Shown here in pieces: positions 7,078 through 56,146 of a stretch of 64,000 nucleotides of DNA; position 1 is the stretch's first letter, and the number at the start of each line of letters is the position of its first letter. The translations under genes and the position numbers were made by a program. The stretch comes from an uncultured delta proteobacterium (GTDB lineage Bacteria > Desulfobacterota > Binatia > UBA9968): contig CAWJZV010000024.1 in the NCBI GenBank assembly GCA_963847445.1, forward strand, positions 96,001 to 160,000, in the 5' to 3' direction. The notes beneath the pieces were generated by a model. That model was given only the letters and a program-made list of their open reading frames with translations. It made no database searches and was not told where the DNA came from.

Positions 7078-9314
7078 TTATTGTTGTTGGACTCGCAACG
7101 CGCGATAAATCGTCTCGGCACTTACCGGCAGATTAAACAGCCGCACGCCAACCGCGTCGGCGATCGCGTTGGCGATGGCCGCCGGCGGCGCGTTGTTGGC
7201 GAACTCGCCGATGGGCTTGGCGTTGTGCGGGCCGACGCCGCCGCCGGAGGTGACTAGAACGGTTTTCAACTCGAACAGATCGGCGATGGACGGCAATTTG
7301 TAATCGCCGAGATTATTGTTGGTCACTTTGCCTTGATCGATGACGATCTCTTCCATGAGTCCCTGGCCGACGCCCATCACCGCCGCGCCGTCGATCTGCC
7401 CCTGATGCGTCAACGGATTGATGATCGTGCCGACATCGTGGGCGGTGACGAAGCGATGGAGTTTCACCGCGCCGGTCTCGGGATCGACTTCGACCTCGGC
7501 GACCTGTGCGCAGATGTACGAAAACTCGTCGGGTGCGCGATAGTCTTCATAGACGGTAACGAGCAGCGGTTCCGCCGTTTGAGCGACAACCCGGCGCAGC
7601 AATACTTGTTGGCCCCGGATCTTGGCGCAGCGAAAACTTGCCGCCGTCGAAGTCGATGTCTTCGGCGCGGCATTCCAACATGCGCGCGGCTTGGGCGAGT
7701 AATTTTTCGCGCAGCTCGTCGCAGGCTTTGATCATGGCATTGCCGGCGACGTAAGTCATGCGGCTGGCGCGCATGCCGCCGTCACGCGGCGCCGTGTCGG
7801 TGTCGCCGATGACAACACGCACATGGTCAATGCCGATTTTCATCCGATCGGCGACCAACTGGCGCAAGATCGTGTGCGTGCCCGAGCCTTGATCGATGCT
7901 CGGGCTGACGATTAAGTAGCCGCCGTCCGCTTCGGCGCTGAGAATCACGCCGGTGTCGCCGCCGCTGATATGGCGGCCCGAAAGCGCGATGCCGCGCCCA
8001 TGATTGGCTTTCTTCGGTTTCTTCCAACCGGCGGCGTCCAGTGCGCCTTGGAGCACTTCACGAAAGCGCACGTCTTTCAACTCTTGACCGACCGCGTCGG
8101 CTTCTCCGTCGCTAAGAAAGTTCTTCAGGCGAAACTCAGCGGCATCTATAGCCAGTTCTTTGGCGATGATGTCGGTGTGGCAGTCCACCGCGAATGCCGT
8201 CGCCACCGCGCCGGGACTGCGGTAGTAACCGCCAGGGACGGTGTTGGTATAGATCTGCATGAACTCAATGTCGGCGTGCTCGATGCTGATACTGGCCCCC
8301 GGCATAGTGCCAGGTCGCCAACGACGTATTGGACTTGAGCGCGCCGTATCCGCCGCTGGCATGGACGGCGCGCATTTGCCGCGCGACCAGCCGGCCGTCG
8401 CGCATTACCCCGCTCTTGATCGTGATCACCGTCGGATGCGCCGGATTGCTCGCCGACAGCTCTTCGGCGTAGGTCATGATGAACTTCACCGGCCGCCCGG
8501 TTTTCTGCGCAAGAAAATAAAGGATCGGCAAGTCGACACCGTCACCCTTGCCACCGAACTCGCCGCCGACGTTGACCACGTTCATGCGGATGCGCTCTTC
8601 GGCCAAACCCAGGCATTTGGATAACTGGCTGCGCACTCCGAAGGGATTTTTCACTCCGGCCCAAACTTGCACGCGGCCGTCCGGCTCAATCGCAACGGTC
8701 GCCGCGTGCGGTTCGAGGTAGCCTTGATGGCGCGCCGGTACATTGAAAGTGTGTTCGAATACCAGATCGGCGTCGCGGAAGCCTTGCTCGACATCGCCTT
8801 TCTTCCACGCTAATCGCGTGAGACCGTTGCGCAGGTCGGCGGCGAGAATATTCTTCGGCGCGCCATCGTACTCGGCGACATTGTCATGGAGCTGCGGCGC
8901 GTCCGGCGCCATCGCTTGCAGCGGATCGAACACCGCGGCAAGAATTTCGTAATCGACGTCGATCAATTGAATGGCTTCCTCGGCGGCATCCACGGTCTCC
9001 GCCGCCACCGCCGCCACCCGGTCGCCGATGAAACGCACTTTGTCCCAGCACAGCACCGGCAAGTCGCGAATCTGCTTGCCGATAAGCAGCCCGCGCACAT
9101 CCGCGCCGGTGATAATCGCCTTCACCCCGGCAACTTTCTCCGCCTTGCTGGTATCGACGCGGACAATCCGCGCGTGCGGATGCGGACTGCGCAAGATTTT
9201 CGCCCACAGCAGCCCTGGCAGCTTCACATCGGCGGCATAGATCGACTGGCCGCTGACCTTGTCGCCCGCCTCCGCCCTCGGCACCGACGCCCCAATCGCT
9301 TTGAATTCAGCCAT
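7078..9314 (-). CDS. Xanthine dehydrogenase family molybdopterin-binding subunit, frameshifts near 8290 and 7610
   Basis: Three consecutive ORFs reconstitute one protein: ILRSPHPHARI, HQGYLEP, GGEFGGK, DQGSG, AHDVG.IINP...GQIDG, AKPIGE; colinear with the intact paralog at 31697-33937. Confidence 0.88.
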
Positions 9315-9531
9315 GGTGTTAGTTTCCTTAATCTATTTTTGCCAGCGCCGCTGGATAGTTAATCAACCTTCAGGGTAATTAGTACGCCAGAGCACCCAAG
9401 GTCAAGGTTGGATGGCAACAATGATGCGAAAGAAGACTTTGTATCTCAGATAAATTGCCAGAACATGAAGCGGTTGGACGCGAACTGGTGAGATTTATCG
9501 ATTGGATGAAAAATCCAATTTCACCACGAAG

Positions 9532-9710
9532 TGAATCATGATCTTACGCACGCCCACAGATAATGTAAAGTACCGGAAGCCATTCCTTAGACTCGTCATG
9601 CCGGCGCAGGCCGGCATCCAGCGGAAGGGATATACCGGCCTGCGCCGGTATGACGGAACAGAGAGTCGTATCGATGCCCAGTCATCGCTGCACGTGTATT
9701 TTCTAAGGAG
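9532..9710 (+). mobile_element. Non-autonomous mini-element family A, copy 1
   Basis: Begins right after CACCACGAAG; left end TG....ATGATCTTACGCACGCCCACAGA, right end GTATTTTCTAAGGAG; internal CGTCAT...ATGACG REP doublet. Confidence 0.7.
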
Positions 9711-9735
9711 ATCACGAAAGCCACGAGACTGAAGA

Positions 9736-9760
9736 GGACGGGTTTCAAACCCGCCCCTAC
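9736..9760 (-). repeat. GTAG-type REP palindrome GTAGGGGCGGGTTTGAAACCCGCCC
   Basis: Near-identical copies at 9736-9760, 11295-11319, 13039-13063, 13934-13958, 28742-28766; variants at 4246-4270, 27800-27823, 61718-61740. Confidence 0.85.
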
Positions 9761-9856
9761 AATTCCAGAATCTTATTTTGCGCCCTTTGCGGTTAAATAC
9801 TCCGGTTCTGAATGACTTCCTTGGTTACGGCTCAACTGAACTTTGCCATTAGTGCA

Positions 9857-10958
9857 TCACAGCCCATACAACGCCTTGGCATTGTCGCTGAGGATTTTCT
9901 GTTTCACTTCCGCTGACAGATCGGTGCGCTCTTTGAAAATTTTAATCGCGTCGACATCGCTCGAGGTATCCATGTGGCCGTAGTCGGTGCCGATGACCAG
10001 ACAGTCCGCGCCGCCGTTCTCGACCAGATAGGGCAAGTCGTCGGAGTTTTCACAGGTGACAAACATGCCGTAGTCGCGCGCGATGTTCTCCGACCAGGGC
10101 CGGTCCAAAGTCTCGAAAACGGTTCTTGGCTTCGTGCAGCACCCAGGGCAGCCACTGCGCGCTGGCTTCGATAAAACCCCAGCGTAGTTTGGGAAATAGT
10201 TGATGGACGTCGCTGAGCATCACATCGCTGAACGCCGCCACCGTCGGCACGCGGAAGCGATGCAACCCCGCCGCCTGCGACACCGGATGGCGATAGAGAT
10301 CGTTGAGCCAAGTGTTGCCGTTGGCGATATGCACCGCGATGGGAATGTCGAGCTTCTGCGCTTCGTCGTAAATCGGATAGAAGTACGGATCGGCGAGCAA
10401 GCGGCTGCCTTCGATGGGCCGCATTAAAACGGCGCAGGCGCCATGCTGCTTGGACCAGCGGATTTGGTCCAACGCGTCCGGCATGCTCAAGATCGGCGGC
10501 ATGCACGACCATAAGAGACGCCCCTTGCCATGTTCCCAGATATCGGCCAGCCATCGGTTCCAGCTTTTGCACAGCGCCACTTCCACCGCGGCCCGTTCGG
10601 TCACGCCCTCGATGAACATGGTGTTGTGCAGCACTTCGACATCGACGCCGGTCTGATCCATATGTTCCAAACGCATGTCGACATTGCCCATCTCGCGCGA
10701 CGCATCCATGTCGGCGAACTTGCGTCCCGCCTGTTTGGCGCGTTGTTCCAGCGCCTCAGGGGAGAAAGCCGGGAATCGCAAACCACGCACCTTGCCATCG
10801 ACGAGCCAAAACTGCTGCTTCACGCCGCCCTTCTCAGCGGTCTGCAACGGTGTCGGCCGGTACTGCCGCTCCGACGGATCCATGAACTCCCAAGTCCGCT
10901 CGCACTCGACAACATGCGCGTCCGCATCGATCACAATCGCCTGTCCATTGGTCGTCAT
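9857..10958 (-). CDS. Amidohydrolase_2 family protein, frameshift near 10105
   Basis: GGAGA RBS; IDADAHVVE, IAVH, FPKLRWGFIEAS, GTDYGHMD, ILSDNAKALYGL. Confidence 0.85.
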
Positions 10959-11048
10959 GTTTAAATCTCCTCTTCGGCCCGAGACTATTTGATCGTGCTG
11001 CATCCTGTCAATATTGCGGAGCGCGAGGAGTTTATTTTCACCACGAAG

Positions 11049-11256
11049 TGTCCATAACTTACGCTCGTCTACAGAATATGAAAATGGATGGACTCCCTCC
11101 ATAGGCGGTCTGCTTGAACGCGTCGTTCCCGCGCACGCGGGAATCCAGGTTTGGTCTGCGCCCAATTGGCCTGGATTCCCGCTTTCGCGGGTATGACGGA
11201 ACCCAGGTGACCTCTTCGTTGTGCAGACCCTCTCCTTGCACGTATTTTCTAAGGAG
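11049..11256 (+). mobile_element. Non-autonomous mini-element family A, copy 2
   Basis: 208 bp after CACCACGAAG; CTTACGCTCGTCTACAGAATATGAAAATGG...GTATTTTCTAAGGAG; internal REP doublet about 11121-11199. Confidence 0.75.
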
Positions 11257-11442
11257 GTTTCGTAGGGTGTGTTTCGCGTTCCAGGTTGCAAAGAGGGCGG
11301 GTTTCAAACCCGCCCCTACATTTCGGAATTCTTTTTGCGTTCTTTGCGGCCAAACTCCAGATCCAATCCACGTCCTTCGTGGTGAAAGAGTCCGACCCAT
11401 CTCAGCCTCGACCGTCTAATTCAGTTCTGCTAGTCTCGCGTC

Positions 11443-11888
11443 ATGAATCTGGCAAGACAATCTTCTGACCACCACCGATGAGATCCGCGATCTAATCAAT
11501 ACAAACCAAACGGATCGCCGTCCTCGGCATCAAGACCGACGCTCAAGCCGACCAGCCGTCGGTGTACGTGCCGCAGTACATGCAACGCGCCGGCTTCGAG
11601 ATCATCCCAGTGCCGGTGTATTACCCGGACGCTACGAAAATCTTAGGTGAGACGGTTTATCGCCAGCTAACCGCCATCCCTGGCGACATCGACATGGTCG
11701 ACGTCTTCCGCCGCCCCAACGACATCGCCGGTCACATCGAAGACATCTTGGCGAAGCGACCCAAGTCCGTCTGGTTTCAATCCGGCATCCGCAACGACAA
11801 GGCGGCGGAGATATTCGCCAAGGCGGGGCTAAAAGTAGTCCAAGACCGCTGACTGATGGTCGACCACCGGCGGTTCGCCGGGAATTGA
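11443..11888 (+). CDS. CoA-binding protein (YccU/COG1832 family), probable selenoprotein; two 5' indels
   Basis: Reconstructs as MNWQDNLL..KRIAVLGIK..IDMVDVFRRP..VWFQSGIRN..VVQDR(TGA)LMVDHRRFAGN; TGA 11850-11852 sits at the family DRC cysteine. Confidence 0.8.
11850..11881 (+). promoter_or_regulatory. Putative bacterial SECIS element
   Basis: Stem CCGGCG (11867-11872)/CGCCGG (11876-11881) with a G-first apical loop about 20 nt after the in-frame TGA. Confidence 0.65.
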
Positions 11889-11984
11889 GATCGTTTGGGG
11901 TTACGAGTTTCGGGTTTCGAGTTTTCGGACTGCCGCGGCGAATTCAGGCTGCTCGATATTTTGCGAATCTAGCAACTAACGATC

Positions 11985-12052
11985 CGTCATACCGGCGCAG
12001 GCCGGCATCCATCCCCTTTTTCCTCTTAGATTCCGGCCTGCGCCGGAATGAC
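11985..12052. repeat. CGTC-type REP doublet (REPIN-like)
   Basis: cgtcataccggcgcaggccggcatcc...gattccggcctgcgccggaatgac; others at 51484-51568, 56763-56872, 57940-58019 and inside family A elements. Confidence 0.85.
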
Positions 12053-12142
12053 AGAAAACGGGGCGATTTGAACTGGGCTGACGGCTTCCACTGAACTCGA
12101 AACCCGAAACTCGAAACGCCGAATCGCGCGCAATGCGTACGC

Positions 12143-13006
12143 TCACGCCGCCAACTTTTTCGCCCGCAGTTGCTTGGCGATAAAATTCTTTACCATCTCA
12201 TGAGCCCGATCCGTCATCGGCCCCGGATCGTCAATCCACAGATGTTCGCAACCCGCGAATAATTCATACTGACAGTCGCCGCCCGCGGCGCGATAGGCGT
12301 TGGCGAATTTCTCCTGCACCGCCGGCCGCACGTTGTCGTCCAGCTCCCCTTGCATGATCAGCAGCGGCGGCAACGTGACTTTTTCGCCGCGGTCGAGAAT
12401 CTCCTGCGGATTGGCTTCGTGGATCGTTTCCCAGGGATTAAAATAGTTCTTGCTGTGCTGCATCATCTCGGCTCGCCCCAGCGACTCGGCATTCAAGTAC
12501 CGCGCATAGGGATTGCTCACCGGCGAGCGCGTCGCGACGTAGTTGACTCTGGCATCGAGGTTCGGCGCTGCGGCGAGCTTAAGCGCATTGTAGCGCGGGT
12601 CGTCCGGCCGCATCGCCAACAGCTCGACTTCATGGCCGCCGCTCGAACTGCCCAGCACACCGATCGTCGCAGCATCGCCGTTCCATTCCTGCGCTTTAGA
12701 TTTCAGCCAGCGCACGCCGTAGTTGGCATCCTGCACCGACGCCGGATAGGGCGCCTCGGACGCGCGAGTCAGGTCGATGGCGACGACGAGAATTCCGCTC
12801 CGCGCCAAACTCTCGTCCATGCTCGAGTTGGCAGTCCGGTCCTTGTTGTTCCACGCCCCGCCATGAAGATCGAGCAACACCGGAAACGGCCCCGCCCCCT
12901 GCGGCTGGTAAACCCGCGCCATCAACATCCGCGCCGCCGCCTTGCGAAACTCGACATCCCAACTCTTGATCTCGAACTTGTCCGAAGGATTGTATGCGGT
13001 CGCCAT
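12143..13006 (-). CDS. Alpha/beta hydrolase (HSL/Aes-like esterase)
   Basis: LHGGAW oxyanion motif, GSSSGG nucleophile elbow, QGELDD, GCEH. Confidence 0.88.
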   Translation of the reverse strand: MATAYNPSDKFEIKSWDVEFRKAAARMLMARVYQPQGAGPFPVLLDLHGGAWNNKDRTANSSMDESLARSGILVVAIDLTRASEAPYPASVQDANYGVRWLKSKAQEWNGDAATIGVLGSSSGGHEVELLAMRPDDPRYNALKLAAAPNLDARVNYVATRSPVSNPYARYLNAESLGRAEMMQHSKNYFNPWETIHEANPQEILDRGEKVTLPPLLIMQGELDDNVRPAVQEKFANAYRAAGGDCQYELFAGCEHLWIDDPGPMTDRAHEMVKNFIAKQLRAKKLAA

Positions 13007-13163
13007 TTTTACGCCCTCCCTTACTATTGAAGCTATGAGAGCGGGTTTCAAACCCGCCCCTCCTGTAAATTATTTTTTGTGCCCTTTGCGTTTCCGATCG
13101 TCCTGAGCACCGTCGAAGGATGCGGCAAATCATCCGAATCCAAAACTTGTGGTTAACACTCTT

Positions 13164-13733
13164 TTACGGCATCGCCGGCGCTTCGCCGACTTGCCAAATA
13201 TACAACGTGCGCGAATCGGCATAGTCCGCGGTGCCATCGCTCGGCGGGGCGAGATGCTCGACGCGCGTCGGTTTCCAGTCGTCGATGTCGAAATCATGGG
13301 CGACCACGCGCGAACCGGGTTTGAGCTTTTGCAGCTTCGGCCGGAGCGCGTTGTTGAACCATTTGAACATGTACAGCGTCACCACCGTCGCTTCGGAGAT
13401 ATCGACGGTGAGTCCGTCCTGGGCGCGAAACTCGACCAGGTGGCTCACGCCTTCGCTCAGGGCGTTTTCCTTCGCCTTGGCGACCAGCTCGGGATTGAGA
13501 TCGATGCCGACGCCGCGGATACCGAACTTCTTCGCCGCTTCGATGACGATACGGCCGTCGCCGCTGCCCATGTCGTAAAGGATGTCGCCCTTCTTGATCT
13601 CGGCGACCTCGATCATCTTATGCACCACATACATCGGCGAGGGAACGTAAGGGATTGAATCTTGCGCCAGACTCACCTGGCGCATCAGCAGCACCAGTCC
13701 AAAAACCACCAACAGCTTAGCAACATTTCCCAT
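13164..13733 (-). CDS. Class I SAM-dependent methyltransferase with signal peptide
   Basis: PYVPSP, LYDMGSGDGRI, ATVVTLY, LKPGSRVVAHDF. Confidence 0.85.
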   Translation of the reverse strand: MGNVAKLLVVFGLVLLMRQVSLAQDSIPYVPSPMYVVHKMIEVAEIKKGDILYDMGSGDGRIVIEAAKKFGIRGVGIDLNPELVAKAKENALSEGVSHLVEFRAQDGLTVDISEATVVTLYMFKWFNNALRPKLQKLKPGSRVVAHDFDIDDWKPTRVEHLAPPSDGTADYADSRTLYIWQVGEAPAMP

Positions 13734-13843
13734 GATGGAGATCCTCCGCTAAAGCATTGAGCGTCGGCATCATATGCCGAGCACCACGATGGTTGTCAAT
13801 GGCAAATTGAACCGGCTGCGTCGCGCCAGGCACAAATCCATCT

Positions 13844-13992
13844 CACCACGAAGCCCATAGCGCGGCGAAGCCGCAACCGAAAAGAAGAATGGCCGCAAAG
13901 AACGCAAAGCGCGCAAAAAAAGAATCGGAAATCGTAGGGGCGGGTTTGAAACCCGCCCTCTTGGCTTCGTGATCTTCGTGTCCTTCGTGGTG
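13844..13992. mobile_element. CACGAAG host repeat with family B left end and GTAG REP cargo
   Basis: CACCACGAAG|CCCATAGCGCGGCGAAGCCGCAACCGAA matches the left end at 48953; the following about 90 bp recurs inverted at 28736-28825. Confidence 0.6.
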
Positions 13993-14111
13993 AAAGCAAC
14001 TTTTCTATGTAATCGCGGATCGGCCGCGATATCCGCGATTTTTCGGGCTGGGCAAACTCTTTCGGCTGTGGTAGTAGCGGGGACTGACTGAAACAAATAG
14101 GAGCTAAGCCT

Positions 14112-15132
14112 ATGACCGGCAAACGAACATGGCTATTGGCTGCGGTACTCGTTGGAATATTCTTTTCCCGGCGCTACGGCTCGCGCCGCGGTGCCGACGC
14201 CGATGCTCGCCGCCTACGGCGGCCATAACGAAACCATGATCCCGATCTGGGTCGGGGCGGATAAGGGACTGTTCCGCAAGTACGGCGTCGATCTGCGCGC
14301 GCTACAGACCCGCAGCGGGCCGATCATGATGGCGACCCTCGCCTCCGGCGGCACGCCGCTCGTCTGGTCGGCGCCGAGCAGCGCGCTGAGCACCACGGCG
14401 AGCGGGCTCAAGCTCGGCTGCTTCGCCGTCGGCAACAACCAGGTGCCGCGGGAAGTCATCGTCAGAAAAGGCATCGAGTCGATCGAAGACCTGCGCGGCA
14501 AAAGCTTTGGCGTGCAGAGCATCGGCGGCGGCTTTTGGATCTCGACCATGGTGGTGCTCGACGCCCTGGGCATCGATCCGGACAAATACAAACTCAACAT
14601 GCGCGTCATCGGCGATACCGCCACCGTCACCCAAGCGCTGATCACCGGCAACGTCGACGCCATGGTCGTCCCCTATAGCTACGGCGATGTCGCCAAGCGC
14701 GCCGGCGCCAAGGCCCTGGCCGATGCCGGCAAGTTGAACGTCACCTATCAAGCCACCGTCATGTGCGCCCAGAAAGATTCCAGCGCGGTATCGAACGACA
14801 CCATGATCGCCATGACCAAGGGCATCGTCGATGCGCTGGCCTACATTCTCGAACCCGCCAACAAGCGCGAGGTCAGCGAGGTGCTCAAGAAAAACCTGCG
14901 CTTGAGCAAGGACGAAGATGTCGACGGGTCTTATCGAGTGTCGCGCTTGCAGATGCCCAACCTCGACATCGCGCCGAACCTGGAAGCCTGGCGCACGGTG
15001 AAACGGCTGGTCGCCAAAGTGAATCCCAAAGTCCAGGACGTCGACATAGAACAAGTGATCGTCACCGGCCCGGCGCAATTTTTGGAAACAAGCGGCTTCA
15101 TGGCGGAGATGCGGAAGAGACTGCCACGATGA
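14112..15132 (+). CDS. ABC substrate-binding protein (NMT1/SsuA-like), 5' frameshift
   Basis: Signal MTGKRTWLLAAVLVG from ATG 14112; PIWVGADKGLFRKYG, IEDLRGKSFGV, ALITGNVDA. Confidence 0.82.
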
Positions 15133-15219
15133 CGAGATTCTGTTCACCACGAAGGCACGAAGATCACGAAGGTAAGAGAAGACAGGAGATTTGTTTTCCG
15201 AACTTCGTGTACTTCGTGC

Positions 15220-15427
15220 CTCCTTCGAAAATACATGTGAGGGGATGATATGCACAACAAAGAGCCTGCGGGGCTCCGTCATACCCGCGAAAGCGGGTAT
15301 CCAGGCTAATTCGGCGCAGAACAAACCTGGATTCCCGCGTGTGCGGGAATGACGAATTGAGCGGGATCATGTTCTGGGAATACCAACCATTTTCATGTTC
15401 TGTAGACGAGCGTAAGCTCATGGAGCA
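15220..15427 (-). mobile_element. Non-autonomous mini-element family A, copy 3
   Basis: 208 bp, reverse orientation, interrupts the right arm of the host inverted repeat 15145-15437. Confidence 0.78.
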
Positions 15428-15514
15428 CTTCGTGGTGCAAAGCCGATAATCAACCTTGAACTTTTGAACTTTAAACATTGAACCGCGCTCATAGCGCACA
15501 GAAGGAGCCCCACC

Positions 15515-17227
15515 ATGCACGGCGGACAAGTAATGTTGAAGGCGGTCGAACGGAGCGGCATCGATTTTATTTTATCCTCGCCCGGCTCGGAGTGGCCGCC
15601 GATGTGGGAAGCGCTGGCGGAAGCGGCGGCGCGCGGCGCGCAGAAGCCCAAGTATATCAACTGCCGCCACGAAGCGGTCGCCGTCGCCATGGCGGCGGGC
15701 TACACCAAAGTGACCAATCGGCCACAGGTCGTCATGCTCCACGCCACCGCCGGGCCGCTTAATGCCGCGATGACTTTGCGCGCCGCGCTGCACGAGCGCA
15801 CGCCGATGGTGATCATCAGCGGTGAGATCGCCGCCTACGGCGAAAACACCAAAGTCGCCGATCCCGGCGGCCAGTGGCTCCATGACCTCACCGACTTGGG
15901 CGGTTCGCCGGATTTGCTGCGCGGCTGCGTCAAATGGGCCGACCGCATCTCGTCGGTGGAATTGTTGGGGCCGACCATCGAACGCGCCGTGCGCATCGCC
16001 ATGGAACCGCCCATGGGCCCGGTGCTGATCGGCATTCCGTTCGAATGCATGATGGAACAAGTCGATGACATCGACCACGGCAAGGCCAATGAAGTCGCCC
16101 GCGCCCACGCCGTCGACGACGCCAGCATCGACAAAGCGCTAAGCCTCATCGCCGCGGCGAAAAATCCCATCGCCTTGACCGAACATGTCGGCGGCGACCC
16201 GCGCGCCGTGGCGCGCTTCGTCGAGCTCTGCGAAATGTTCGGCATCCCGGTGATGGAAACCTACCGCCCCGCGTTCATGAATTTCCCGCGCACCCATCCA
16301 CTTTATTTGCATCACGATCCCAAGGCGGTCGATGCGGCGGATTTGATTCTAATGGTCGACGCGGTGACGCCTTGGTATCCGGCGAGCAAGCCGCCCAAGA
16401 ACGCCAAAGTGATTGCCATCGCCGATGAGTTTCCCAACTCACGCCTGCCCTACTGGGGCTACAACGTCGATCTGGCCTTGGTCGCAGCGCCGGCAACGAC
16501 TCTCGGACAACTGGTACAAAAAGCCAAAGCCTCCGAGCAAGTCGCCGCCAATCGCGCGAGCTACCAGCAACGCGCAGCGCGCACGGGCGAGCAGCACGGC
16601 AGTTATTTTGGCAAGCTTAAAGAAGAAGCGCAGAAGCACGCCGACGACAATCCAATTGATCCGCGCTGGGCGGTGCATGCGCTCGGGCAAGCGCTGCCGG
16701 CGAATGCAGTGATCTCGGAAGAGACCACGGTCTATCGCAGCTTGATCCAAGAAACCATGCCGCGCGACCAACCGCAGTCTTACTTCGCGCGCATCACCGG
16801 CGGACTCGGCGTCGGTTTGAGCTACGCCCTGGGCGTGAAGTTAGCGATGCCCGACCGGCCGGTCTTCGCGTTCATCGGCGACGGCGCGTTTCATTACAAC
16901 GCCGTGCCGTCATGCTTGGGCGTAGCGGAGGAATATGGCCTGCCGATCCACTGCGTGATTTTCAACAACGGCCGCTATCTGTCCATGGAAACCAGCTTGA
17001 TCAAATATTTCCCCGACGGCGCGGCGAAAACCACCGGCGTTCACTTCGGCGCCGAGATCGGCCCGCGTCCCGATTACCAGCACTACGCCAAAGCCCATGG
17101 CGGCGAAGGCTTCCGGGTCACCAACCCGAAGGACATCGCGAAGGCCGTCGAACAAGCGCTAAAGTGCGAGCAGGAAAAGAAACTAACGGTGATCGACCTG
17201 GTGCTGAGCGATTTGAATCCGCGCTAG
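15515..17227 (+). CDS. Thiamine pyrophosphate-dependent enzyme (acetolactate synthase/benzoylformate decarboxylase-like)
   Basis: RHEAVAVAMA catalytic Glu; GDGAFHYN...FNN ThDP motif; AAGGAG RBS. Confidence 0.88.
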   Translation: MHGGQVMLKAVERSGIDFILSSPGSEWPPMWEALAEAAARGAQKPKYINCRHEAVAVAMAAGYTKVTNRPQVVMLHATAGPLNAAMTLRAALHERTPMVIISGEIAAYGENTKVADPGGQWLHDLTDLGGSPDLLRGCVKWADRISSVELLGPTIERAVRIAMEPPMGPVLIGIPFECMMEQVDDIDHGKANEVARAHAVDDASIDKALSLIAAAKNPIALTEHVGGDPRAVARFVELCEMFGIPVMETYRPAFMNFPRTHPLYLHHDPKAVDAADLILMVDAVTPWYPASKPPKNAKVIAIADEFPNSRLPYWGYNVDLALVAAPATTLGQLVQKAKASEQVAANRASYQQRAARTGEQHGSYFGKLKEEAQKHADDNPIDPRWAVHALGQALPANAVISEETTVYRSLIQETMPRDQPQSYFARITGGLGVGLSYALGVKLAMPDRPVFAFIGDGAFHYNAVPSCLGVAEEYGLPIHCVIFNNGRYLSMETSLIKYFPDGAAKTTGVHFGAEIGPRPDYQHYAKAHGGEGFRVTNPKDIAKAVEQALKCEQEKKLTVIDLVLSDLNPR

Positions 17228-55329: not shown

Positions 55330-55499
55330 GAATCTCTTTCAGATTTATGATGAGCAAGCCTCAACACGAAGATCATGAAAGCTACGAGGTGTTCGGATAA
55401 TTGAAATTCCGGCCTTCGTGTCTTTCGTGGTGTAATAGTCTTATTGACCGTGGCACTTGCGCCACACAAAGGCCGCAGAACGTTTGACTAGGAGGAACC

Positions 55500-56039: not shown

Positions 56040-56076
56040 AGTAGATCTTCATCTGAGATTGGTGCGAAAGAGAATT

Positions 56077-56146
56077 CACCACGAAGGACACGACGGGTTG
56101 GGATAACCAAGTCTCCGAACTTCGCGCCCTTCGTGCCTTCGTGGTG
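56077..56146. repeat. Unoccupied CACCACGAAG...CTTCGTGGTG inverted repeat
   Basis: caccacgaaggacacgacg...cttcgcgcccttcgtgccttcgtggtg; similar unit near 55364-55432. Confidence 0.75.

Follow-up and report, generated by a model that had tools for sequence, protein, structure and literature searches.

Three short non-coding sequences of one kind, here termed family A, lie in a window of 64,000 nucleotides from the genome of an uncultured delta proteobacterium (contig CAWJZV010000024.1 of assembly GCA_963847445.1), the window being the whole stretch of DNA that was analysed. The source genome, G000, comprises 7.19 Mb in 48 contigs, and the window corresponds to C24:96001-160000 of it; the genus set used for comparison consists of 31 genomes, G000 included, and labels of the form G0xx denote genomes, while L0xx and L1xx denote extracted loci. 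We argue that family A is a non-autonomous derivative, resembling the MITEs (miniature inverted-repeat transposable elements), of a 1.54-kb insertion sequence (IS) of the IS110 family with a bridge RNA encoded upstream of its transposase, a reading to which we give a probability of roughly 0.88. The three copies were located by direct reading and by alignment of the three stretches, and are arranged with their flanks and host repeats as follows, where REP stands for repetitive extragenic palindromic sequence.

9522-9531, plus strand: left target flank of copy 1, formed by the outermost heptad CACCACGAAG, which ends in AG, the presumed core
9532-9710, plus strand: family A copy 1, 179 bp, with left end 9532-9571, REP doublet 9594-9656 and right end ATTTTCTAAGGAG at 9698-9710
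11039-11048, plus strand: left target flank of copy 2, CACCACGAAG
11049-11256, plus strand: family A copy 2, 208 bp, with left end 11049-11087, REP doublet 11121-11199 and right end 11244-11256
11257-11384, no strand assigned: remainder of the host repeat around copy 2, a GGGTTTCAAACCCGCCCCTAC hairpin module, with the right-arm outer heptad CTTCGTGGTG at 11375-11384
15145-15219, no strand assigned: host palindrome of copy 3, with left arm CACCACGAAG-GCACGAAG-ATCACGAAG at 15145-15171, a loop, and two inner right-arm heptads to 15219
15220-15427, minus strand: family A copy 3, 208 bp, with right end 15220-15232, REP doublet 15277-15354 and left end 15388-15427
15428-15437, minus strand: left target flank of copy 3, formed by the outer right-arm heptad, CACCACGAAG as read on the minus strand

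All three copies are intergenic, and their interiors are non-coding. Each starts directly after CACCACGAAG with a common left end, TG...CAT(G/A)A.CTTACGC.CG.C.ACAGA..ATG.AAA, and finishes on a common right end, GTATTTTC(T/G)AAGGAG, and each interior holds an inverted pair of GC-rich hairpins between CGTC(A/G)T and ATGACG. Coordinates, strands, lengths, end motifs and the CACCACGAAG flank are as a first-pass annotation of this DNA had stated, and the REP doublet that it had placed in every copy is found in all three. Terminal inverted repeats, which the same annotation had reported as missing, are absent from the family A copies, hence the term MITE-like rather than MITE in the literal sense; what had gone unmentioned is a 6-bp subterminal inverted repeat, with GAAAAT at ~34 nt from the left end and its partner ATTTTC at 7 nt from the right. 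The nearest genomic relative of copy 3 is 95.1% identical to it. A search of Rfam with window positions 9000-16000 returned only two sub-threshold microRNA-like hairpin matches.

A BLAST search with the three window copies gave 299 matches in G000. Left and right ends were paired 50 times within 400 bp, and 51 times under a 6-kb limit, one of the latter pairs being spurious; a stricter pattern retained 47 complete copies, and real copies span 159-268 bp. A loose left-end pattern with 3 substitutions allowed returned 143 'orphan' left ends, nearly all of them chance matches in coding DNA, and strict left-end matches were counted instead. The flanks are constant, with (T)TTCACCACGAAG upstream and mostly G.CACGAAG downstream, the boundaries are base-exact in all copies, and the pattern is far beyond chance. 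No two copies in G000 are identical, the identity between nearest neighbours being 80.7-98.4% with a median of 93.3% for the 45 copies that have a partner. A 2595-bp pair of left and right ends on C4 was considered as an autonomous copy and rejected, since its right-end match had arisen by chance. REP doublets number 33 in G000, 17 of them outside family A and 16 inside. The three-level nesting proposed at first, in which the doublets would be cargo of the mini-element, is thus plausible, but its direction may be either: the doublets may have entered the mini-element, or the mini-element may have taken shape around a doublet.

The host repeat into which family A is inserted is a palindrome of ~79 bp with the structure TTCACCACGAAG-G.CACGAAG-G.CACGAAG-GTTCGGA, loop, TCCGAAC-CTTCGTG..-CTTCGTG.C-CTTCGTGGTGAA, each arm of which consists of three CACGAAG heptads at 8-9 bp spacing. 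There are 147 pairs of left and right arms within 900 bp of each other in G000, of which 61 span less than 130 bp (mostly 70-90 bp, a few by chance) and 86 span at least 130 bp because inserts are present. Without exception, family A is inserted where the outermost heptad of an arm, left or right, meets the second one, with the left end adjoining the outer heptad, and both arms of one palindrome can be occupied. Among the 303 exact CACCACGAAG words of G000, 161 are empty sites, with the second heptad coming next; behind 51 stands a family A left end, behind 28 another module, and the remaining 63 have some other sequence there. When counted from the element, 54 of 60 strict left-end matches lie behind an outer CACCACGAAG-type heptad and not one behind an inner heptad, G000 having 324 exact heptads with another heptad no more than 14 nt upstream; the other six matches are four decayed versions of the same site, one natural tandem junction and one chance match in coding DNA. 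A natural tandem, in which a right end is directly followed by a left end, lies at C18:8976-9464. At 45 of the 54 used sites the heptad is preceded by CAC. The tie between insertions and CACGAAG repeats, on which the first-pass annotation had staked its reading, is borne out by these 54 placements.

Several further features of the host palindrome were observed. Examples of it in the window lie at 15145-15219 together with 15428-15437, at 55361-55432 and at 56076-56146, and the orthologous intergenic sites of relatives have variants in which the heptads are CACAAAG, CACGAAA or CGCAAAG (L132, L134 and L152). A second module occupies window positions 13844-13992, directly after an outer CACCACGAAG, which is the position of the other module in 28 of the 303 CACCACGAAG words genome-wide. 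It starts with G.CCTAGCGCGGC..GCCGCAACCGAAA, contains CGCAAAG-type heptads, ends near a GGGTTT.AAACCCGCCCCTAC hairpin, and stands in place of both inner heptads and the loop of the left arm.

The IS110 domain was searched for across the genus genomes, and 30 loci were taken. In three of them (L019, L020 and L035) the family A left end follows the target word, and in two of these the right end is present as well. Copies of the family A ends around an IS110 gene, for which the first-pass annotation had looked ahead, are therefore to be found in the genus. The order in L019 is TTTTCACCACGAAG, the left end, a leader of ~250 nt, an open reading frame for 421 aa, AAATTTTCGAAGGAG and then GACACGAAGAGCACGAAGG, giving an element of 1537 bp, with GACACGAAG downstream of its right end. 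Proteins of the L019 type match the Pfam domains DEDD_Tnp_IS110 (PF01548, 1.3e-32) and Transposase_20 (PF02371, 2.7e-18), and the NCBIfam model NF033542, 'IS110 family RNA-guided transposase', at 3.3e-86 with 289.5 bits against a cut-off of 140. In a HMMER alignment to IS621 chain 8wt6_A (E = 4.5e-11), residues D, E, D, D and S fall in conserved columns, the segments GlDvhK, amEstG, ktDmkDa and hESag standing against GIDTAK, CIEATG, KTDTVDA and YESGS; the catalytic roles of these residues are those described in PMC11208158.

A scan of public genomes returned 78 loci, the 12 closest of which encode proteins of 76-100% identity and sit in assemblies titled Candidatus Binatia, Deltaproteobacteria and similar. 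A pattern scan found the left end in 11 of these 12, after CCACGAAG in 10 of the 11; the twelfth, L059, was missed by the pattern, yet its sequence displays the left end after CACCACGAAG. The right end lies ~1.54 kb downstream in nine of the 12, and one assembly holds four IS copies at different sites. In every full-length copy found, the family A ends enclose the IS110 gene, and IS copies occupy the same insertion site in the same orientation as family A. Alignment of family A with the IS is confined to the first ~40 nt and the final 13 nt. The IS begins with TG and ends with AAGGAG, has no terminal inverted repeats, and has AG as the only bases common to target and element end, and both right-end variants of family A, CGAAGGAG and CTAAGGAG, also occur in full-length IS copies. 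An internally deleted IS copy, L124 (945-2108), in which both ends are intact ~1.16 kb apart and the transposase match ends at residue 259, is an intermediate form between the full element and the mini-element. Furthermore, in L052 (~2493) an IS right end is followed head-to-tail by a family A left end. Such junctions occur naturally in this element and in two distant relatives (L061 and L063; L114), and could come from the insertion of a circle beside a resident end.

The ~170-nt structured leaders of 11 IS copies are nearly identical, and two long-range helices in them still show compensatory changes. The outer helix pairs GCGGUGCCCCAG with CUGGGUGCACCGC, where U:A is replaced by C:G in the L053 group, and the second, GGGACAUCC/GGAUGUCCC, closes the second domain of the leader. 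Relatives at 44-57% protein identity retain the scaffold words ATGAAAATGG, GAGCCCG, AUUGUCGCC and AGCACG, and have the second helix rebuilt in other letters, e.g. GGCGACC/GGUUGCC or UGAUUGCC/GGCAAUCA. For the donor loop only, RNAalifold with 10 sequences gave 18 pairs in the closing helix, 11 of them changed on both sides. Two putative guides can be read in this RNA. After GAGCCCG it continues with (A/C)CACGAAG-UG, which is the left flank CACGA, AG and the first two bases of the element, so that the target-guide word CACGAAG/CCACGAAG equals the left target flank plus AG; after AGCACG it continues with CGAAGGAG, identical to the final bases of the element with their AG. In the corresponding places of its RNA, a Dehalococcoidia relative has GUUCGGAAU-AU and (U)GUAGCAAU, which match its own flank, gttcggaat, and its own right end, cgtagcaat. 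Among 12 lineages, 10 have a target guide identical over 8-10 nt to the left flank of the same element, the flank being cut by a contig end in the other two, and 10 have a donor guide identical to the right end of the same element, immediately following a conserved ATTTTC. Judged from sequence, this covariation of guides with flanks and ends is the behaviour described for bridge RNA guides (PMC11208160, PMC11208158).

All the relatives have in common CATG at left-end positions 3-9, ATGAAAAT(GG) at ~33 nt from the left tip, and ATTTTC at 7-9 nt from the right tip, the latter two motifs giving rise to the subterminal inverted repeat of 6 bp. A left-end segment recurs on the 5' side of the donor loop in exact runs of 7-10 nt in five of the 12 lineages (reached by at most 24 of 1000 shuffles), and over only 4 nt in this element. 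In these lineages (L062, L066, L071, L075 and L077) the segment is located 20-32 nt into the left end and immediately precedes ATGAAAATGG; its sense is the same, and hence its partner would be the DNA strand to which the other donor guide also pairs, a pairing that the IS621 model does not predict. Two other candidate features of the leader were set aside. GGUGUCC was rejected as a guide for the right flank, since it makes up one side of the outer closing helix and is matched by compensatory changes in other copies. Handshake dinucleotides after the guides are not claimed: this element (UG) and the Dehalococcoidia relative (AU) conform to them, most other lineages do not.

Comparison of orthologous sites supports the view that family A has moved, as the first-pass annotation had supposed when it proposed to compare empty with filled sites. 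At the site of copy 3, whose flanks in G000 are 89-95% identical to those of relatives, the intact, empty palindrome CTTCGTGC|CTTCGTGGTG is present in G004, G014, G021 and G022, i.e. in all four relatives, and this is the very arm that had been predicted from excision of copy 3. The site of copy 2 is precisely empty, TTTTCACCACGAAG|GTTTTCGTAGGG, in G022, the closest relative (93% flank identity), which also has the GGGTTTCAAACCCGCCCCTAC hairpin module of that host repeat. At the site of copy 1, the same palindrome in G022 is unfilled in its left arm and carries a family A copy in its right, and G002 has a 67-bp spacer without any repeat. AG is the only sequence duplicated after insertion, and the core is taken to be AG (CT on the other strand) from this shared dinucleotide only. 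Of 24 public runs, 19 contain part of the stretch, and contigs of one (X1) span both boundaries of copy 3 without differences.

The shared ends and insertion site, the IS110-bearing partner, the guide matches with their covariation, and the presence and absence of copies at orthologous sites all support the initial proposal that family A consists of non-autonomous donors of an IS110-type recombinase. We infer mobilisation in trans because the ends are shared and because the donor guide CGAAGGAG matches the family A terminus C(G/T)AAGGAG; a circular intermediate is likewise presumed, as are the precise positions of cleavage. The mini-element would keep only the cis-acting donor ends and would have lost the genes for bridge RNA and transposase, which would therefore be supplied in trans by a full-length copy. 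The left part kept would amount to ~40 bp, in which TG and three variable bases are followed by CATG, by the block CTTACGC.CG.C.ACAGA and by ATGAAAAT; the right part would be 13 bp with ATTTTC, (G/T)AAGG and the AG core. The extent of these stretches (left up to ATGAAAATGG, right from ATTTTC) suggests that they are needed in cis. In the proposed reaction, the guide CACGAAG, followed by UG, would pair with the left target flank and the core, the guide CGAAGGAG would pair with the right end of the element and the core, and the two DNAs would recombine at the AG common to both (CT when read on the opposite strand). The element would then land after the outermost CACCACGAAG of the ~79-bp palindrome, with its left end beside the heptad and without target duplication.

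A number of observations weigh against this reading or parts of it. The first-pass annotation had expected a bridge RNA whose target loop matches both flanks; the left-flank guide CACGAAG and the right-end guide CGAAGGAG are present in the leader, and guides for the right target flank (GCACG) and for the first bases of the left end were not found there. Rfam gave no match to the L019 leader, a single-sequence fold of the leader is no better than those of shuffles (z = -1.0), and shuffles of single-sequence helices gave a weak signal. A sigma-70-like promoter was found neither at the natural junction of right and left end in L052 nor in the left end and leader of L054. The site of copy 2, empty in G022, holds a decayed family A copy in the more distant G004 (84%), a pattern that calls for precise excision or else for lineage sorting. 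Neither a circle junction nor a product of excision was observed; the contigs of four public runs break at repeats, none bridging an empty site or a joint of right and left end, and give no evidence either way. The sole DEDD_Tnp_IS110 match in G000 itself (C15; L001, C15:5604-8912) is truncated after ~220 codons by an IS3-like element on the opposite strand; it was rejected as the mobiliser, having neither family A ends nor significant similarity to the cognate protein.

Also among the adverse points is the choice of heptad. The target guide of most IS copies reads GACACGAAG, which gives a 9-nt match to inner heptads and only a 7-nt match to the outer heptad that is used, and G000 has 114 inner GACACGAAG heptads, none of which is used among the 54 placed insertions. 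Because the guide matches the unused inner heptads better than the outer CACCACGAAG, base pairing alone does not explain the site used. It is conceivable, though we hold it only tentatively and at less than even odds, that target choice is gated beyond guide pairing, with the base of the palindrome as a structural gate or an extra guide as the second determinant; the idea of the palindrome as a gate is drawn from a single observation, the 0 of 54 insertions at inner heptads. If such gating holds, the ~50 donors and ~160 empty targets per genome would form a natural data set for specificity rules beyond the IS621 model.

REP doublets, also known from bacterial interspersed mosaic elements (BIMEs), REPINs and REP-associated tyrosine transposases (RAYTs) form a natural comparison class, and family A might accordingly be thought to be moved as single-stranded DNA by a Y1 (HUH) transposase of the IS200/IS605 or REP-associated type. 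Insertion after a fixed word, the lack of terminal repeats and of a duplication, and the internal hairpins would all suit that class, and G000 has four Y1_Tnp matches, including two full RAYT-like genes with long C-terminal extensions:

C2:49258-50181 (L002:1468-2391): RAYT-like Y1 gene, 307 aa
C7 (L003:1033-1860, minus strand): RAYT-like Y1 gene, 275 aa

No family A end, REP hairpin or CACCACGAAG heptad lies within 3 kb of any Y1 gene in G000, however, whereas the family A ends surround an IS110 gene in each full-length copy. Moreover, the hairpins of family A are internal and mutually inverted, not subterminal in one orientation, and a Y1 target of GAAG or CGAAG alone would also take the inner heptads, none of which is taken. 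In its interior family A does resemble a REP doublet, with inverted GC-rich hairpins between CGTCAT...ATGACG; it differs from REP doublets and REPINs in that the mobile unit is bounded by IS110 ends and not by the doublet, and in that no hairpin-flanked Y1 gene was found in G000. We regard movement by a Y1 enzyme as scarcely credible. Slightly less remote, but still very improbable, is that the mini-element does not move by itself, the palindrome and its insert spreading as a composite, or recombination or gene conversion between repeats accounting for the pattern. Most host repeats do carry something, as the 86 of 147 arm pairs of at least 130 bp show, their modules are mosaic, and the site of copy 2 is empty in the closest relative and filled in a more distant one. 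Against this stand the intact, empty palindromes at the copy 3 site in four of four relatives, the copies in opposite arms at the copy 1 locus of G000 and G022, and the base-exact insert boundaries, which also delimit the transposase-bearing element at unrelated loci.

A different objection concerns present activity only and not the identity of the element: family A could be a decayed fossil, with which the IS of relatives shares ends by descent and on which it no longer acts. The distribution of the two parts bears on this. The left junction pattern is found in 23 of the 31 genus genomes, with most matches in G000 (33), G022 (22), G009 (20) and G019 (18), and the reversed pattern, used as a control, has none in any of the 31; an earlier tally, in which 36 of 41 genomes matched, was partly due to REP hairpins alone and was replaced by the junction pattern. 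The cognate transposase (E <=1e-30, at least 78% identity) occurs in three of the 31 genomes, G009, G024 and the unpublished G005; the last contributes one of the three genus transposase copies and 6 junction matches, and no conclusion depends on it. In G000 (completeness 91.8%) the cognate transposase was not found in any of the 48 contigs, and for this reason its family A copies are probably immobile at present, or served by an unassembled transposase copy. This absence, the lack of identical copies in G000 (nearest-neighbour maximum 98.4%) and the decay of the G004 copy at the copy 2 site are what a fossil would lead one to expect. Yet copy 3 is specific to G000 at a site whose flanks are so similar in relatives; in G009, nine of the 20 junctions, the IS itself among them, carry the exact TGTGTC left-end variant of that genome's IS; and the assembly with four IS copies at different sites also speaks for activity. 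Taken together, we consider the fossil explanation unlikely, though it deserves far more weight than the two others. As a separate observation, neither RAYT-like gene has REP hairpins within 3 kb, although G000 holds hundreds of REP-type hairpins.

As a non-autonomous derivative of an IS110-family IS, family A adds to a class that is already known, and its closest precedent is ISPpu9 of Pseudomonas putida KT2440 with the MITE-like derivative MITEPpu9 (NAR 2025, PMC12288879). According to that report, ISPpu9 recombines at AG in REP sequences, and the AG core in sense orientation has been shown experimentally (PMC12288879). As described there, it resembles family A and its IS in belonging to the IS110 group, lacking terminal inverted repeats and having one AG each in target and element end, and it likewise targets palindromic extragenic repeats, a likeness of element organisation and not of compared proteins. 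MITEPpu9 is, like family A, short, flanked by copies of both IS ends and thought to be moved by the transposase in trans; unlike family A, it carries the small RNA gene ssr9 and is reported in 8 copies, 5 of them attached to the IS, whereas family A carries a REP doublet and has ~50 free-standing copies per genome, in 23 of 31 genus genomes and mostly without a transposase.

The best described member of the family, IS621, has a DEDD and Ser recombinase and a bridge RNA with two guide loops (Durrant et al. 2024, PMC11208160; Hiraizumi et al. 2024, PMC11208158). With IS621 as described in these papers, the present IS shares the DEDD and Ser recombinase and REP targets, and its gene is preceded by a predicted non-coding RNA with two loops, whose candidate guides take in the core dinucleotide. 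It differs from that description in that both guides found lie on the 3' sides of their loops and read as the transposase-sense strand, so that in IS621 terms its top strand would be the antisense strand, its core CT, and its genes inverted relative to the donor site; it also has a longer conserved donor (40 bp + 13 bp) with the GAAAAT/ATTTTC subterminal repeat, and the partner guides were not found. For ISPpu10, another IS110 element, a preprint (bioRxiv 10.64898/2026.03.19.712850) describes insertions all at one repeated intergenic sequence, a recombinase acting in trans, and a 'sequence-structure dual match' in which the stem-loop of the target adds specificity beyond RNA-DNA pairing. The present IS is similar in using one repeated intergenic site, but here a gating role of the palindrome is suggested by sequence comparison alone. 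A census paper notes conserved MITEs that resemble an ISfinder entry labelled ISNme5_IS110. In the literature outside subscription journals and ISfinder itself, MITEPpu9 was the only IS110-derived MITE-like element with mechanistic data that we found, and nothing was found on the present element or on the heptad palindrome.

Bridge-RNA recombinases of the IS110 type are under development as programmable tools for genome writing, and their natural behaviour is known from few elements. Family A offers a large natural family of donor-only elements together with an autonomous partner, which reveals the minimal donor that is kept, ~40 bp plus 13 bp. It shows that donors can outnumber and outlast their enzyme, the junction being present in 23 of 31 genomes against three for the transposase, and it provides a clear case in which guide pairing alone fails to predict the site used. 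It also accounts for a large fraction of the intergenic repeats that this uncultured bacterial group carries.

Within the window, the minus-strand gene between copies 1 and 2 appears as two long overlapping frames, 9904-10572 and 10050-11291, for which a frameshift, or one frame being due to chance, is possible.

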